Sequence record: SRR20825010_4291
Strand: one strand, 5' to 3'
DNA length: 64,000 bases
Shown: in pieces, positions 22,068 through 28,425 of the stretch
Numbering within the stretch: position 1 is the stretch's first letter
Layout of the letters: each line of letters opens with the position of its first letter
Notes under the pieces: generated by a model
The model's input: only the letters and a program-made list of their open reading frames with translations
Told to the model about the DNA's origin: nothing
The model's database searches: none
Translations under genes and position numbers: made by a program

Positions 22068-22147
22068 AACCCTCCAAGAGTTCCAATCCGATATTGGCTG
22101 TAAATTGTACTTTAACGAAGGAGTTGACTATTAACTCTTGGAGGGTT
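22068..22147. repeat. REPIN-like inverted doublet, copy 2
   Basis: AACCCTCCAAGAGTT (22068-22082) and AACTCTTGGAGGGTT (22133-22147), 50-bp spacer. Confidence 0.8.
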
Positions 22148-22163
22148 AGCCAACTAAAACGTA

Positions 22164-22667
22164 TTACTTCCGAACATAAGTTACAAAGTCGAAAGCATAT
22201 TTATGCTTTTCATCCGCTTCATGATGCTCTCTTCCTTCTTCCTTCCATTCACTTTTATCGAATTTAGGGAAGAAAGTATCTGCACCTTCGATTACCGCTT
22301 CTACTTCGGTAATCAGCATTCTATCGACCAATCCTTTTTCAATGGCTTCGGTATAAATTTTCCCACCGCCAATAATCATGCATTCGCTCAATCCTTGTTT
22401 TTCGCAATAGGCCAAAGCTTCTTCTAAGCTATGTGTTACGACATGGCCTTCTGGCATTTCAAAATCCTTATTGCGGGTAATCACCACCGAAGTACGGTTG
22501 GGTAAAGGCTTCCCAAGGGATTCATAAGTCTTGCGTCCCATCAGAATATGATTCCCTGAGGTCACCGTCTTGAAGAATTTGAAATCATCGGGCAGTCGCC
22601 AAAGCAAATCGTTGTCTTTGCCTATGGCATAGTTTTCTGAAATCGCTACTACAATGGTCCTGATCAT
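22164..22667 (-). CDS. folA: Dihydrofolate reductase
   Basis: IG..NDLLW.LPDDFKFFK, MGRKTYES, PLPNR, IIGGG.IY, DTFFP. Confidence 0.96.
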   Translation of the reverse strand: MIRTIVVAISENYAIGKDNDLLWRLPDDFKFFKTVTSGNHILMGRKTYESLGKPLPNRTSVVITRNKDFEMPEGHVVTHSLEEALAYCEKQGLSECMIIGGGKIYTEAIEKGLVDRMLITEVEAVIEGADTFFPKFDKSEWKEEGREHHEADEKHKYAFDFVTYVRK

Positions 22668-23581
22668 AATTGTGTCCCTCTTAAAAACGATTCAATATCC
22701 ATTCGTTTCTTTCCTTCCATTTGCAATTCGGTAATGGCCAAAGCGCCCGTTCCTGTTTGAATATGAAGGAAAGTTTTATTGTCGGTTTTGTATTCACCTG
22801 GCTCAGTTTTTTTGCCTGAGTCCATTTTTTTGGTGGCGAAAATTTTAAAGTTTTTATCGTTGATGCATGTCCAAGCTGCGGGATAAGGCGATAAACCTCG
22901 AATGAAATTATAGACTTCTTCGGTTGGTTTCTTCCAGTCAATTTCGCAGGTCTCTTTAAATATTTTAGGCGCATGCTTAATCTCCACCGACTCGTCTTGT
23001 GGCAGTTGCGGATAATCACCCGCCTCAATGGCACGAACCGTTTTGAGCACCAATTTGGCACCTCGCTGCATTAGTCTTTCATATACATCGCCTACATTAT
23101 CTTCTTCGCCTATGGGTTCTTTTTCTTGGAAAATAACATTTCCAGTATCAATCTCATGTTTCAGGAAGAAGGTGGTCACACCCGTTTCTTTTTCACCATT
23201 GATAATGGCCCAGTTGATAGGCGCAGCACCTCGGTATTGTGGCAACAAAGAACCATGTAGGTTGAAAGTACCAATTTCGGGCATGTCCCAAACAGCTACG
23301 GGCAGCATTCTAAAAGCCACCACAATTTGCAGGTTGGCATTGTAGCTTTTCAGCTCTTCTAAAAACTCTGGGGACTTTAAATTGGTAGGCTGCAACACAG
23401 GAATATTCTGCGAAACGGCATAGTCCTTCACCGGTGTAGTAGTTAATTTTTGCCCCCTGCCCTTCGGACGGTCAGGCGCAGTGACCACGGCCACCACATT
23501 GACGCCATTTTCAACCAAAATTTGTAAGCTAGGCACCGCAAACTCAGGCGTGCCCATATATATAATTTTTAAGTCTTTCAT
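22664..23581 (-). CDS. fmt: Methionyl-tRNA formyltransferase
   Basis: MGTPEFA, PDRPKGRG, NLHGSLLPQYRGAAPI, GVTTF..IDTG. Confidence 0.97.
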   Translation of the reverse strand: MKDLKIIYMGTPEFAVPSLQILVENGVNVVAVVTAPDRPKGRGQKLTTTPVKDYAVSQNIPVLQPTNLKSPEFLEELKSYNANLQIVVAFRMLPVAVWDMPEIGTFNLHGSLLPQYRGAAPINWAIINGEKETGVTTFFLKHEIDTGNVIFQEKEPIGEEDNVGDVYERLMQRGAKLVLKTVRAIEAGDYPQLPQDESVEIKHAPKIFKETCEIDWKKPTEEVYNFIRGLSPYPAAWTCINDKNFKIFATKKMDSGKKTEPGEYKTDNKTFLHIQTGTGALAITELQMEGKKRMDIESFLRGTQL

Positions 23582-23730
23582 CTATGTTTTTAGAGTCCCA
23601 CAAAAATAGGGAAATGGTATGAGTATTGGGAATTTTGGTAACTCTCATAATGGCACAACGGGAATAACAAATCATAAATTCATATTGACTGGCTATATGA
23701 AGAGTGAGCTTTCAACAGCTCAATTTAAAC

Positions 23731-24726
23731 TTATGCCTCTATTGAGTTGATAAATGTAGAGTCTTTCTGTTTTATCAGTTTCGTAACTAATGTATTAGGA
23801 TGCTTTGTCGCCAATTCATTAATATATTTCTGGGCTTTCCTTAATCGTGCTTTGTCTACACTATTAAGATACGAGAGCCATCCCTCCACATGTCTTAGAA
23901 GTTCCTCGTTTGTCTGTTCACCAACAAGTGTCAAATGATGAATTTTTGCTCTTAAAGTCTTATATTTTCCCCTTCCAATTCCGACCCTTTCCTCAGATAT
24001 GACCAATCCTGTCACAATTTTAGCCCTTGCTGAGCCTGAAATTCTAGTTTTTTTGTGATTGAGTTTAAATCCTTCACTATTGATGATATTATCAATCATC
24101 GGCAAAATTTTCACCACATTCGAAGGACTAAGACCTGAAAATGAAAGGTCATCAGCATACCTCGTATAAGTTATACCTCTTTTACCAACATATCCGAGAA
24201 CCCTCAAGTCTAACTTCCAAGAAGCGAGATTAGCAATTATCGGTGAACATGGACTGCCTTGAGGTAAAGCATCCTTATATGTACAGATATTAGAAAAGAC
24301 AGTTGAAATAAGATCATTATACCCCAGAGACTTAAAAACACTAAACACCTGATTGGAATTTACACTTGGGAAAAAGTCCTTAATATCAAGGTTTAGGATT
24401 GTATTTGCACCTAAGTGCGGAAGGGCATTATCTAAGGTTGAACTCTTTTTCTTAAAACCTTTACAAGAAGGAGAAACATGTGTGTTATTTAAAATATTTA
24501 CTAAGATCCACGATTGAAGACCTTTGAGCTTCTTACTAGGTTGACTAATTGTACGTTTACCTCCTGATTTTTTAGGAATCTCGTAAGTCTTATAGTATTT
24601 ATTGGAGTGATATGATAATTGATAAATAGTATAGTTTGATATATGAATGACTTTTGAGAACTCGTCAATACTACGAATCACAGGCAATCCAAGCATACTA
24701 AGCTTAATGATTTCAGTCTTTACCAT
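23731..24726 (-). CDS. Retron-type reverse transcriptase
   Basis: PKKSGGKRTI, region X NALPH (NAxxH), LDIKDFFPS, LPQGSPCSP, catalytic YADD (aa 190-193), region Y VTG (aa 238-240); 331 aa, no maturase or endonuclease domain. Confidence 0.95.
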   Translation of the reverse strand: MVKTEIIKLSMLGLPVIRSIDEFSKVIHISNYTIYQLSYHSNKYYKTYEIPKKSGGKRTISQPSKKLKGLQSWILVNILNNTHVSPSCKGFKKKSSTLDNALPHLGANTILNLDIKDFFPSVNSNQVFSVFKSLGYNDLISTVFSNICTYKDALPQGSPCSPIIANLASWKLDLRVLGYVGKRGITYTRYADDLSFSGLSPSNVVKILPMIDNIINSEGFKLNHKKTRISGSARAKIVTGLVISEERVGIGRGKYKTLRAKIHHLTLVGEQTNEELLRHVEGWLSYLNSVDKARLRKAQKYINELATKHPNTLVTKLIKQKDSTFINSIEA

Positions 24727-24746
24727 ACTTAATATTAATGAAGGAT

Positions 24747-24922
24747 GGGTAGTCCTTTTTACTCCTCAAATTTTGAGTGAAGTTTAAGTTTGAAAGCTTC
24801 AACGAAGCTTTTGAGCTTAAAATTTGCGATTATAACGCTGTGTTTTACTCTCGGATGCCGAAACAACATCCACTCGATTGTACATTGCGAACAATGTAAC
24901 TTAGTCTAAAAAGAACATACCC
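24747..24922 (-). ncRNA. Retron msr-msd non-coding RNA
   Basis: RNA 5' arm GGGUAUGUUCUUUUUA (24922-24907) pairs with 3' arm UAAAAAGGACUACCC (24761-24747); candidate branching G at 24906; msr hairpins at 24881-24898 and 24853-24871; msd hairpin at 24777-24827. Confidence 0.88.
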
Positions 24923-25816
24923 TTACACCTTCAGTTTCTTATTTCTATTTCTCAAATTTAATATTTCTAGTCTTAAGTTATCAATTTCTGATTTTTCATC
25001 CTGCCTTTTTACTCTAGTCCTTGTTTTCTGAAAGGCCGAGAGACTATTAGAACCCAATGTGGTTATTTTATATCCTTCTGTGGTTAATTGAACGTATCGT
25101 TTTTTTATCAACATTGTTAGAGCAATAGTGGCTGTCTGGAAAGCGTTTTTCTCATCTTCGGTAGCAGAGGCTACAATGTTTATTAAAGTTGTCTTGGTAA
25201 CAGGTTCTAGAAGATATATTGAAGGCAACAAAAAATTATCCAATTGTAATAATGAAATCTTCTCATGATGCTTATTGCTTTGTCTTTTCATCTTCTTGAG
25301 AGCAGACGTTAGCTTGTCTATTCCATTATCGATTTCCACTGGATTGATAAACAATACATTTGATGAGTTCGACTTCCTAACTAATTTCAGAGGCCCTTGA
25401 TTAATAAAGCTTTTATCCTTTTTATATCTCTCATCAATAACACAAATAAGCTTTTCCCTTAATTTTTCATCATTTGAAAATGCTCCAAGCTCAGCAAAGG
25501 ATCCAGGACTTTCAGGTATCAAAACTATAGCATCAACACTGTTAGCTAGAATACCTTCAAGTGAGAGCAAATCCTTAGTTCTTGAGCTATAGAGAAGCTC
25601 TTCAAATATATCTTCTGGATATATAATATCTATCCAAAAATCGCCCTTTAGAAGTTCAGCTATTTTATATCTCAGTTTTTCTTTTTGATTAATGTCTGCG
25701 CCACATAAAAATATAGTGGTTTTATAATTATTAGCAGGCCGGTATATATCATCCCTGATTTTATTTGAGATGTGGATGCAATCCTCTTTTGAAATATGAT
25801 TATGACTCTTAATCAC
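24923..25816 (-). CDS. Retron effector: nucleoside-deoxyribosyltransferase-like domain plus C-terminal winged helix (Ec86/Ec73/St85-type)
   Basis: TIFLCGA, YPEDIFEELL, LLSLE..LA.SVD, PESPGSFAELGAF (E109), SFINQGP; C-terminal LIKKRYVQLTTEGYKITTLG; directly upstream of the msr/msd and RT. Confidence 0.85.
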   Translation of the reverse strand: MIKSHNHISKEDCIHISNKIRDDIYRPANNYKTTIFLCGADINQKEKLRYKIAELLKGDFWIDIIYPEDIFEELLYSSRTKDLLSLEGILANSVDAIVLIPESPGSFAELGAFSNDEKLREKLICVIDERYKKDKSFINQGPLKLVRKSNSSNVLFINPVEIDNGIDKLTSALKKMKRQSNKHHEKISLLQLDNFLLPSIYLLEPVTKTTLINIVASATEDEKNAFQTATIALTMLIKKRYVQLTTEGYKITTLGSNSLSAFQKTRTRVKRQDEKSEIDNLRLEILNLRNRNKKLKV

Positions 25817-25992
25817 TCTTTAACTGCTGGTTTCTATTATGTGACGTATGTTAATGAAGATTTCGTTTCCTACTCCTTTCAAAGATTTATTCAATATAAG
25901 AAAGTTAGTTTTACTTGTTATTGATTGTGGTAACTCTTCTTTCCTTTTGGTAAAGTTCTGCACTATCTGAAAATAATGCCCTAAGAGGTTTG

Positions 25993-27159
25993 TTACTCAA
26001 AATCCTTATACAACAAATATTGTTTTCTTTTCGCCTTGTAAGCGTTCAAATCTTCTTGCCAAGTCGCTTTAATTTCTCCCTCGGTCATTCCGGCTTCAAT
26101 CTGCTTTCGCAGTTCGGCAGTTCCAGCCAAGAGGGTAAGGTAATCTTTGAAGAATTCGGTTTTGTCTTTTAAGGCTTCGTAATAAGCAATGAGGTATCGC
26201 AAGGTCAGTTCATGCGGTTGATCCACGACAGAAAAGCTTTGACCAAAGCATTCCTTTCCTTCCAGTGGTGGATATTTAGAGCCTTCATTGGGTTGCGGAG
26301 TGAAAGTATAAGAACCCAAACTAAAATCAGGGTGACCAATTACTTCGAAAGGGAAATCGGTTCCTCGGCCTACGCTTACTACCGTGCCCTCAAAAAAACC
26401 AAGGGAAGGATAAAGCGCAATAGCATTATCGGTGGGTAAATTGGGCGAAGGTTTTACAAGCAATAAATAAGTAGCATTATGATCCCAGCCTTTCATTTTT
26501 ATAACGGCCAAATCAGCTTTTACGCCATTTTCTAACCATCCTTCTCCATTAATCATTTGCGCCAGTTCGCCCACGGTAAGGCCATGAACAACCGGAATTG
26601 GATGCATGGCAATAAAACCATTAACGCTATCCTCTTTTACAGGGCCGTCAATGTACATACCGTTCGGATTGGGCCTATCGAACACAATGACCTGCTTATT
26701 ATTTTCAGCTGCGGCCTCCATAATATAATGCATGGTGCTGATGAAGGTATAAAAGCGCACCCCTACATCTTGAATATCGAAAATGAGTACGTCTACATCT
26801 TTCAACATTTCTGGTGTCGGTTTTTTATTGCTGCCGTAAATCGAAACGATTGGAATGCCTGTTTTTCCGTCTTTGGAATCGTTGACTTTTTCGCCATCTG
26901 GCGCTTCGCCTCTAAAGCCGTGCTCAGGTGCCATCACTTTTTTAATGTCAACGCCCAAGCTGTGCAACGTATCTACCAAATGCGTTTGGCCCACCATAGA
27001 AGTTTGATTGACCACCAAAGCCACTCGTTTACCTTCCAGCAATGGGAGGTATTCTTTCATTCTTTCGGCTCCTACTTGGAGGGTTTCCTTTTGCTCGGTT
27101 TGCGATTGACAGCCAAAACATGTCATTAAAATAAAAAGGGCAGATAGCAGTCTATTCAT
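25993..27159 (-). CDS. NamZ/DUF1343 exo-beta-N-acetylmuramidase family lipoprotein
   Basis: VNQTS, APEHGFRG, FDIQDVGVRFYTF, DRPNP, HGLTVGELA, PSPNLP, SVGRGT. Confidence 0.9.
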   Translation of the reverse strand: MNRLLSALFILMTCFGCQSQTEQKETLQVGAERMKEYLPLLEGKRVALVVNQTSMVGQTHLVDTLHSLGVDIKKVMAPEHGFRGEAPDGEKVNDSKDGKTGIPIVSIYGSNKKPTPEMLKDVDVLIFDIQDVGVRFYTFISTMHYIMEAAAENNKQVIVFDRPNPNGMYIDGPVKEDSVNGFIAMHPIPVVHGLTVGELAQMINGEGWLENGVKADLAVIKMKGWDHNATYLLLVKPSPNLPTDNAIALYPSLGFFEGTVVSVGRGTDFPFEVIGHPDFSLGSYTFTPQPNEGSKYPPLEGKECFGQSFSVVDQPHELTLRYLIAYYEALKDKTEFFKDYLTLLAGTAELRKQIEAGMTEGEIKATWQEDLNAYKAKRKQYLLYKDFE

Positions 27160-27210
27160 TCGGTTCGTTATCTTTGAAATTTAACGGTAGCATCAAAATT
27201 AACCATATTC

Positions 27211-28425
27211 TTGAACCTCCCTTATTTCATAGCAAAAAGAATCAGCGATCCGGGCGATAACAGCTTCTCGGCCGTAATCCATAAAATTGCCATTGCCAGC
27301 GTTGCGCTGGGTTTGGCTATTATGATGATTGCTTTTTTTGTGCTTGGTGGTTTTCAAGAGAATATCAAAGACAAGATTTTTAGCTTTTCTGGTCACATTC
27401 AAATCAAAAAATTCTCCCTTAATAATTCATATGAGGAAGAGCCGATAGTTGTAGAGCCCGATCGCTTGAAGGCAGTCGCGACAGACCCATATGTTGTTCA
27501 TGTGCAGGAATACGCCCATAAACCGGGCTTAATTTCCAAAGATGGTGAAGTGTACGGGGTACTTTTTAAGGGGGTAGCACCGAGCTTTAACGAAACATTG
27601 TTTGATAAGTACATGGTGGAAGGCGAATTCATCAGTTTTAACGATAGCACTTCCACCGATGTGATGATCAGCTCTAAAATGGCCAAAAACTTGGGTTTAA
27701 AAATTGGCGACAAGGTGATCAATTACTTTATTATGGATCCGCCCAAAACGCGTAGGGTAACCGTAAAAGGAATTTACAGCACTGGGCTCGATACTTTTGA
27801 CGACCAAATGATGATTGGGGATATCAATGTGGTTAGAAGTTTAAATGGCTGGAAGGATAATGAAGTAGGAGGCTACGAAGTATACCTTAAAAACATAGAT
27901 GATATTGCGGCTGCGGATGATGCCATCATTGGTAATTTAAGTGTAGAGCATTACACAGAAAGAGTAGATAATAAATTCGTGCAAATTTTTGACTGGCTTA
28001 ATCTGCTCAGTAAAAACGTGAGCATTTTCATTTGGCTCATTCTATTGGTCGCCTCATTTAATATGGTTTCGGTTTTGTTTATCCTCATTATGGAACGTAC
28101 TCAAATGATTGGCACTTTCAAGGCATTGGGAGCTTCAAATAGCCTAATCAGAAGAATATTTTCCTACAATGGCTTTAGACTAGTGCTCAAAGGTTTATTA
28201 GTGGGAAATGCGATAGCCATTGGTTTTGCTTTTCTTCAAGATTTCTTCCACATCATCCCTTTAGATGCTGCCAACTATTATATGGAGTATGTGCCAATTG
28301 ATTGGGATTGGTCGGTGACGATTGGACTCAATTTACTCACATTGATCTTGGTGTCCTTTGTGCTGATTATCCCTACGGCCATTATTGCCAGAATAAAACC
28401 AGTAACGGCCATTAGGTTTGATTGA
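27211..28425 (+). CDS. LolC/E-FtsX family ABC transporter permease
   Basis: N-terminal TM, periplasmic domain, ERTQMIGTFKALGA, C-terminal P..AIRFD. Confidence 0.9.
   Translation: MNLPYFIAKRISDPGDNSFSAVIHKIAIASVALGLAIMMIAFFVLGGFQENIKDKIFSFSGHIQIKKFSLNNSYEEEPIVVEPDRLKAVATDPYVVHVQEYAHKPGLISKDGEVYGVLFKGVAPSFNETLFDKYMVEGEFISFNDSTSTDVMISSKMAKNLGLKIGDKVINYFIMDPPKTRRVTVKGIYSTGLDTFDDQMMIGDINVVRSLNGWKDNEVGGYEVYLKNIDDIAAADDAIIGNLSVEHYTERVDNKFVQIFDWLNLLSKNVSIFIWLILLVASFNMVSVLFILIMERTQMIGTFKALGASNSLIRRIFSYNGFRLVLKGLLVGNAIAIGFAFLQDFFHIIPLDAANYYMEYVPIDWDWSVTIGLNLLTLILVSFVLIIPTAIIARIKPVTAIRFD

Follow-up and report, generated by a model that had tools for sequence, protein, structure and literature searches.

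The stretch at positions 24747–24922 on the minus strand of SRR20825010_4291 is very probably the msr-msd ncRNA gene of a type II-A retron in three parts that belongs to the Ec86 kind (Retron-Eco1, II-A3) and is carried by a member of the Bacteroidota. The initial annotation had read a complete msr/msd architecture in this stretch, and our analysis bore this out: the stretch is flanked by genes for a retron reverse transcriptase (RT) and an NDT-type effector, its layout is Ec86-like, the G that had been predicted as the branch point is invariant among the relatives, and the helices covary. In the following, "the window" refers to the whole stretch of DNA that was analysed (64,000 nucleotides), and all positions without a locus name are positions in the window.

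Gene content and host of the locus

A gene for an NDT-like (nucleoside deoxyribosyltransferase-like) effector, a non-coding stretch and a retron RT gene follow each other head to tail on the minus strand of the window:

24923–25816, minus strand: effector gene, an ORF of 297 aa
24747–24922, minus strand: non-coding stretch of 176 nt, the ncRNA gene
23731–24726, minus strand: retron RT gene, an ORF of 331 aa

The effector gene's stop codon (TAA, 24925–24923) abuts a1, the 5′ arm of the inverted repeat that closes the ncRNA, and the start codon of the RT gene lies 20 nt past a2, its 3′ arm.

The RT was recognized by Pfam (RVT_1, 1e-26), by PADLOC (RT_II-A, 2.2e-124) and by NCBIfam ('retron St85 family RNA-directed DNA polymerase', 292 bits; cutoff: 235 bits). 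Its translation contains NALPH, which conforms to NAXXH, the catalytic YADD, and VTG; NAXXH and VTG are described as marks of retron RTs in the accessible text of Mestre 2020. When compared with the PDB, where only solved retron structures can be matched, the RT was most similar to Ec86 RT (1.1e-89), and the next match was Ec67 (1.8e-34). It shares 156 of 305 residues (51%) with the RT of the Ec86 locus L072, which is introduced below.

The effector consists of an NDT-like N-terminal domain and a C-terminal DNA-binding part. An effector of this composition next to an ncRNA-RT module is the definition of type II-A in Table 1 of Mestre 2020, in the part of that paper available to us. The 297-aa protein was matched by PADLOC NDT_II-A (1e-88) and by the NCBIfam 'retron St85 family effector protein' (189 bits; cutoff: 100 bits), and the Pfam search assigned it to no family. 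Its best match in the PDB was the Ec86 effector, aligned over residues 21–294 of its 297 residues (8.3e-54), and it is about 40% identical to the effector of L072. According to the accessible part of bioRxiv 10.1101/2023.08.16.553469, defence by Ec86 requires E65, S100, E106 and S133 of the effector. All four are conserved in the window as E68, S103, E109 and S136, and these residues are invariant across 27 relatives. Among 2578 candidates that were scored, 668 relatives of the effector were found at E ≤1e-10; the closest one in the protein collection was 92% identical and the next one about 73%, and many of the relatives with 65–73% identity were labelled Flavobacteriales or Bacteroidetes.

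The neighbours of the retron are housekeeping genes, with fmt and DHFR downstream and namZ upstream. Since the fmt product is 80–84% identical to Roseivirga proteins, the host is probably a Roseivirga-like bacterium, that is, a relative of Roseivirga within the Bacteroidota. Contigs of run X3 represent a relative that is about 91% identical over window positions 22100–27300 and keeps the order fmt, RT, ncRNA, effector, namZ. In these contigs, a1 (at 24919) and a2 (at 24752 and 24754) differ by small indels that could compensate for one another. A joint in an X1 contig that skips 23362–26735 was disregarded, as it has only 20 letters on one side and probably stems from another organism. In the 58 loci that were searched, fmt, namZ and dhfr were absent within 1.6 kb of the retron, showing that the insertion site is not common to the metagenomic relatives.

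A scan of genome contigs with the RT returned 70 loci with 26–44% identity, of which only one (L001) has an effector adjoining the RT. The ncRNA sequence was not found in these 70 loci by blastn-short (best E 0.81). Scans of viral contigs with the effector and with the RT as queries returned no relatives.

Fold of the ncRNA and the predicted msDNA

The minus-strand RNA of 24740–24930 folded with −53.6 kcal/mol (z −3.96), and 0 of 200 shuffled sequences folded as well. The following elements make up the ncRNA gene and its predicted product:

24907–24922, minus strand: a1, the 5′ arm of the closing inverted repeat, paired with a2 in the MFE fold
24906, minus strand: predicted branch (priming) G in UUAG context, unpaired in the fold and invariant in the alignment
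24881–24898, minus strand: msr hairpin 1, 7 bp with a UUCG loop, seen in the fold
24853–24871, minus strand: msr hairpin 2, 19 nt, 8 bp including two U-G pairs and a UUU loop, seen in the fold
24825–24852, minus strand: spacer from hairpin 2 to the msd stem, a block conserved in the alignments
24780–24824 (core 24783–24821), minus strand: msd stem-loop, template of the long msDNA hairpin, seen in the DNA fold and in changes on both sides
24765–24777, minus strand: small hairpin close to where the template starts, plus-strand sequence CTCAA-ATT-TTGAG, seen in the DNA fold
24762, minus strand: invariant G immediately 5′ of a2 and opposite the branch G, seen in the alignment and in L072
24747–24761, minus strand: a2, the 3′ arm of the closing inverted repeat, paired with a1 in the MFE fold
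24763–24843, plus strand: predicted msDNA of about 81 nt, placed with the Ec86 offsets from L072, ends uncertain by a few bases

Folding of both strands recovered the a1/a2, msr and msd hairpins drawn in the initial annotation. In the MFE fold, a1 (24922–24907) and a2 (24761–24747) formed 15 pairs with U24917 bulged and a single wobble pair (U24914–G24754), matching the bulged U and the G-U pair that had been predicted. The base that follows a1, G24906, was unpaired in the MFE as well as in the centroid fold, and both msr hairpins (24898–24881 and 24871–24853) formed where they had been placed. The plus strand of 24762–24850, folded as DNA (z −3.74; 1 of 200 shuffles as good), yielded a mini-hairpin at 24765–24777 and an 18-bp hairpin at 24783–24821, which is lengthened to 24780–24824 by two extra pairs. 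The distal hairpin of the earlier reading therefore forms, but its limits had been set a few bases too wide (24777–24827). Its wobble pairs had been assigned to the plus strand only, and indeed, when one energy model was applied to both strands, the DNA hairpin had 18 pairs, three of them G-T, whereas its RNA counterpart had 14 pairs and no wobble. The mini-hairpin, too, was found in the window, but in a register that only a minority of the relatives share.

The plus strand also folded well as RNA (−51.3 kcal/mol, z −4.76), scoring as well as the minus strand. Since the folding energy alone cannot pick the strand, we took the strand of the ncRNA from the gene orientation and the wobble pairs. 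A search of Rfam gave no match for the region; this is uninformative because the Ec86 ncRNA itself is also unmatched in Rfam.

The 19-nt hairpin 2 had exact matches in eight viral-contig loci, in which the elements around the hairpin have the same order as in the window. The RT of one of them, L072, matched the PDB entry 'RNA-directed DNA polymerase from retron EC86' with 712 bits over all 320 residues. Since it is essentially the Ec86 RT of the PDB, we concluded that the eight loci are Ec86 loci. In L072, a1 and a2 form a perfect 12-nt duplex, a G in TTAG context follows a1, and a G precedes a2. The stretch that the window has in common with Ec86 is only 19 nt long, and with the ncRNA as query, blastn returned nothing from E. 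coli genomes at E ≤10.

The msDNA of Ec86 is 86 nt long. In L072, a span of 86 nt that begins with the second base 5′ of a2 ends exactly 10 nt 3′ of hairpin 2. Moving this span with the L072 offsets to the window gave a template of 24763–24843 and thus a predicted plus-strand DNA of 81 nt. The initial annotation had expected an msDNA of 80–90 nt that follows the plus strand and starts near 24762; strand and length agree with our prediction, and the start was refined to 24763 (a T) by the Ec86 offsets. The latter position is the likelier start, because the invariant G24762 is probably left uncopied. The predicted start may be off by 1–2 bases and the predicted end by more, as the spacer after hairpin 2 deviates from the family consensus in the window; the stop point, carried over from Ec86, is the least secure part of the prediction. 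This spacer (24825–24852) probably contains the stop of reverse transcription (near 24843) and a short RNA-DNA hybrid. In the accessible part of the Retron-Eco11 paper, unpaired G residues are described beside the inverted repeat, with the branch G joined to the first DNA base. The retron census, in the part accessible to us, reports RT-DNA bands that differed in length and abundance.

Covariation and msd stem exchange in a metagenomic family

A metagenome scan in which the query was an alignment of 27 effector relatives returned 55 loci carrying an effector relative. In most of them the effector is 50–73% and the RT 56–82% identical to the proteins of the window, and they are mostly labelled Flavobacteriales or Bacteroidetes. 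Hairpin 2 occurs within four substitutions in 37 of the 55 loci and exactly in 12. The window and the 43 loci with a full effector-to-RT spacer (for L080, the full ncRNA) were aligned with MAFFT, yielding an alignment of 44 sequences that was not fitted to a structure. It left out L111 (a duplicate of L110), the truncated loci L094, L113, L119, L120, L122, L126 and L129, and the distant loci L130–L133. The equivalent of G24906 was invariant in 44 of 44 sequences, as were its TTAG-n-C context and, where a2 has its 5′ edge, a G and a T.

On the raw alignment, RNAalifold returned only 14 pairs, located in hairpin 2 and at the base of the msd stem. Because a1 shifts by one column between the subgroups with and without the bulge, we tested a hand-written structure. 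With this structure, 88.2% of the 1913 cells were standard pairs, compared with only 42.9–49.1% after the partners on the 3′ side had been slid by 1–3 columns. Changes on both sides were found for 28 of the 44 pairs, counted in 44 related sequences whose cells are not independent events, and 0 of 500 covariation shuffles reached any of the five measures. The helices contributed as follows:

a1/a2: changes on both sides in 10 of 15 pairs, 90.2% of cells paired
hairpin 1 base: changes on both sides in 2 of 3 pairs, 95.2% of cells paired
hairpin 2: changes on both sides in 2 of 8 pairs, 99.4% of cells paired
msd lower stem: changes on both sides in 13 of 13 pairs, 93.6% and 76.6% of cells paired in its two segments

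The comparison of homologs thus showed that the a1/a2, msr and msd helices all covary; the initial annotation had named a covariance model of homologous loci, described below, as a check. The exchanges in hairpin 2 among the 44 sequences were from G-C to A-U and from A-U to G-C. The a1/a2 duplex had −9.9 kcal/mol or less in 43 of the 44 sequences and is weak in L125, and a single hairpin of 3–17 bp lies between the G and hairpin 2 in all 44. The window itself has some features of its own: it is without the 3-bp basal stem of hairpin 1 that the relatives keep, its spacer after hairpin 2 is unlike the family consensus, and its msd stem is unlike that of most family members. For the small hairpin, the register of the window was paired in 67% of the cells and a shifted register in 75%, the window having the minority form.

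A covariance model built from the alignment (178 positions, 45 pairs) matched the effector-RT interval on the forward strand in 51 of the 55 metagenome loci at E ≤0.01. The score was at least 58 bits in 48 of these 51 loci, and five of the 48 (L094, L111, L120, L122 and L126) were outside the training set. None of 69 retron-RT loci without this effector was matched at E ≤1. In the whole 64-kb window, which is itself in the training set, the model had a single match (24744–24924, minus strand), indicating that there is no second copy of the ncRNA. The distant loci scored lower: 24.9 bits for L072 (Ec86), 27.1 bits for L001, 26.5 bits for L130 and 28.4 bits for L132 and L133. Since the reverse strands of five family loci reach 25–30 bits with the model, scores of 25–28 bits are no proof alone. 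The model's alignment of the Ec86 ncRNA nevertheless spans it exactly, a1 and a2 included, and places the G that follows a1 on G24906. Because its score for Ec86 is weak, the link to Ec86 rests on the identical hairpin, its position and the proteins. At least 48 metagenomic relatives keep the RT-binding hairpin of Ec86 nearly or fully unchanged; conservation at an RT identity of only about 51% makes hairpin 2 the likely recognition element of the RT.

In one relative, L098, a2 is followed by about 135 additional bases before the RT start (L098:2676–2810). In L080, an insertion sequence (L080:2386–3598) lies between a2 and the RT start codon and parts the RNA gene from the RT; it encodes a 327-aa DDE transposase (Pfam DDE_Tnp_1, 4.2e-35) and has inverted ends with TTAAG on both sides.

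The alignment also bears on the strand for which the msd stem is built. In the RNA-only helices (a1/a2, hairpin 1 base and hairpin 2), 160 G-U cells stand against 26 A-C cells, whereas the msd lower stem has 10 G-U and 32 A-C cells. Since a position that mismatches as A-C in the RNA pairs as G-T once copied into DNA, the wobbles of the msd favour the DNA-product strand. Among 42 distinct msd stems, the stabler hairpin was the DNA-sense one in 28 and the RNA-sense one in 9, and both were equal in 5. The initial annotation had noticed this preference in the window, and it is seen across the family; selection of the msd stem on the DNA-product strand is thus supported, with the same reservation that cells of related sequences are not independent.

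The msd stem (alignment columns 127–162, corresponding to window positions 24783–24821) has been swapped between otherwise near-identical ncRNAs. L080 and L083 are identical at 148 of 153 positions outside the stem and at 15 of 31 inside, and L115 and L124 at 148 of 151 outside and 13 of 31 inside. Conversely, L080 and L088 have the same stem (30 of 31) on a diverged backbone (130 of 153). The double-stranded part of the msd contains the 6-bp palindrome AAGCTT, resembling a restriction site, in the window (24793–24798 and 24806–24811, plus strand) and in three relatives, and GATATC, GAATTC and GTTAAC occur in other msd stems (palindrome carriers: L080, L088, L102, L109, L115 and L103). A general enrichment of 6-bp palindromes was considered and dropped, as 13 of the 42 distinct stems had one versus 8.8 expected from shuffled arms, which is not significant. 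Tentatively, the msd stem may be seen as an exchangeable sensor cassette, each version of which would report a different phage DNA methyltransferase or nuclease, in the way that CCTGG reports Dcm in Ec86; we regard this idea as unlikely. If it were true, nature would offer in this family a library of msDNA sensors built on one chassis, and the wobble asymmetry would let the sensing strand be read from the sequence alone.

How else could the stretch be explained? A structured intergenic element unrelated to retrons, i.e. a terminator, an attenuator or a repeat palindrome, would fit the good folding of the plus strand as RNA and the missing Rfam match. However, the terminator scan was negative across the stretch, the element is always placed between the effector and RT genes, it has the exact 19-nt hairpin and the whole layout in common with Ec86, and it covaries as one closed structure, so that we give this explanation practically no chance. 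A decayed or silent retron, whose RNA gene looks intact and which makes no msDNA and provides no defence in the host, appears very improbable as well: although the insertion sequence in L080 shows that such loci do suffer disruption, both ORFs of the window are full length with intact catalytic motifs and effector residues, all helices are intact, and the relative with about 91% identity retains the whole locus.

A retron ncRNA that differs in its details from our prediction has a somewhat better standing, and we consider it improbable rather than remote. In this case, another G (e.g. G24900) would prime, or the DNA would be clearly longer or shorter than about 81 nt. The ends of msDNAs differ between retrons, those predicted here were carried over from Ec86, and the window has a spacer off the family consensus and a hairpin 1 without basal stem. 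On the other hand, G24906 is invariant (44/44) and directly follows a1 as in Ec86, whereas G24900 lies before hairpin 1 in a single-stranded stretch that is variable in the alignment. We therefore favour an Ec86-type retron ncRNA with G24906 as the predicted branch G.

Proposed mode of action and comparison with known retrons

Priming from G24906, the ends of the msDNA, co-transcription, control of the effector and a role in defence are what we infer for the Ec86-type retron of the window. All three parts (effector gene, ncRNA and RT gene) share one orientation and are probably transcribed as one unit. In the transcript, a1 and a2 would close the folded ncRNA, and the RT would bind the msr hairpins (the conserved one being hairpin 2). 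The RT would then prime from the 2′-OH of G24906, copy the msd part from about 24763 and halt at about 24843, some 10 nt short of hairpin 2. The expected product is a branched RNA-DNA molecule with about 81 nt of DNA, which would fold into a hairpin of 18 bp, three of them G-T, and a second, small one on its 5′ side. Retron priming from the 2′-OH of a conserved G and a halt of reverse transcription before the msr are described in the accessible text of Mestre 2020.

The subsequent steps are proposed by analogy with Ec86: the complex of RT and msDNA would keep the NDT-like effector inactive until some activity of the phage changed the msDNA and so freed it, and the freed effector would deplete nucleotide-related metabolites and so abort the infection. 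For Ec86, the accessible part of bioRxiv 10.1101/2023.08.16.553469 reports that the msDNA stem touches the effector, that the system is activated when phage Dcm methylates CCTGG in the stem, and that the activated effector depletes adenine-related metabolites. For Retron-Sen2, methylation of the msDNA at a single site frees the effector, according to the portion of the published account available to us.

A search for sigma-70 promoters gave 9 sites compared with 10.5 expected, which is chance level. Promoters of Bacteroidetes have the motif TAnnTTTG. The octamer TAAATTTG at 24953–24960 (minus strand), in the 3′ end of the effector gene, matches this motif. Situated 47–54 nt on the 5′ side of the branch G, it could indicate that an ncRNA-RT transcript starts internally. 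As a promoter it was set aside: it is exact in only 14 of the 44 relatives and lies in conserved codons.

To summarize, the complete layout of a retron RNA could be read from the sequence, down to the candidate priming G and the strand of the predicted DNA, and was then confirmed by covariation. For biology at large, this would be an ordinary defence system; for retrons, it would extend the range of the Ec86 type (II-A3) to the Bacteroidota. The RTs and ncRNAs of the Ec86 branch might be interchangeable, which is relevant to genome editing with Ec86. In Table 1 of Mestre 2020, as far as available, the II-A3 ncRNA type is listed under Proteobacteria and Firmicutes, and the accessible part of the retron census table has seven II-A3 rows (six retrons), none of them from Bacteroidetes. 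The literature searched contained no description of the Bacteroidota family, and the supplement of Mestre 2020 may list II-A3 members from Bacteroidota. The sequence of hairpin 2 was absent from the full-text literature search and from the census supplements.

Among the known systems, Retron-Sen2 (St85, II-A1) resembles the window in having an NDT-type effector and an RT of the NCBIfam 'retron St85 family'. Its gene order is ncRNA, effector, RT. The part of the literature on Retron-Sen2 available to us describes its msDNA as a sensor that restrains the effector. In Table 1 of Mestre 2020, as far as accessible, it is set apart from Ec86, however, by its RT clade (clade 1 versus clade 9) and by the type of its ncRNA.

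Retron-Eco1 (Ec86; II-A3 of Mestre 2020), known from E. coli B/BL21, has the same order of effector, ncRNA and RT as the window. Both ncRNAs consist of a1, the G in UUAG context, hairpin 1, hairpin 2, a spacer, a long msd stem, a G and a2, and hairpin 2 is identical in all 19 nt. The two retrons differ in several respects. The host of Ec86 belongs to the Proteobacteria, that of the window to the Bacteroidota. Whereas a1 and a2 of Ec86 form 12 perfect pairs, those of the window form 15, one of them a wobble, and have a bulge. In the window the effector's stop codon directly precedes a1, but in Ec86 it ends on the G itself; in L072, the effector ORF crosses a1 and its TAG (L072:2469–2471) ends on this G, so that coding sequence overlaps the priming site. 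The msd stem of the window is unrelated in sequence to that of Ec86 and is without the CCTGG site, an extra small hairpin is present near the template start, and the predicted DNA is about 81 nt long compared with 86 nt in Ec86. Nevertheless, the proteins of the window match those of Ec86 far better than those of any other solved retron.
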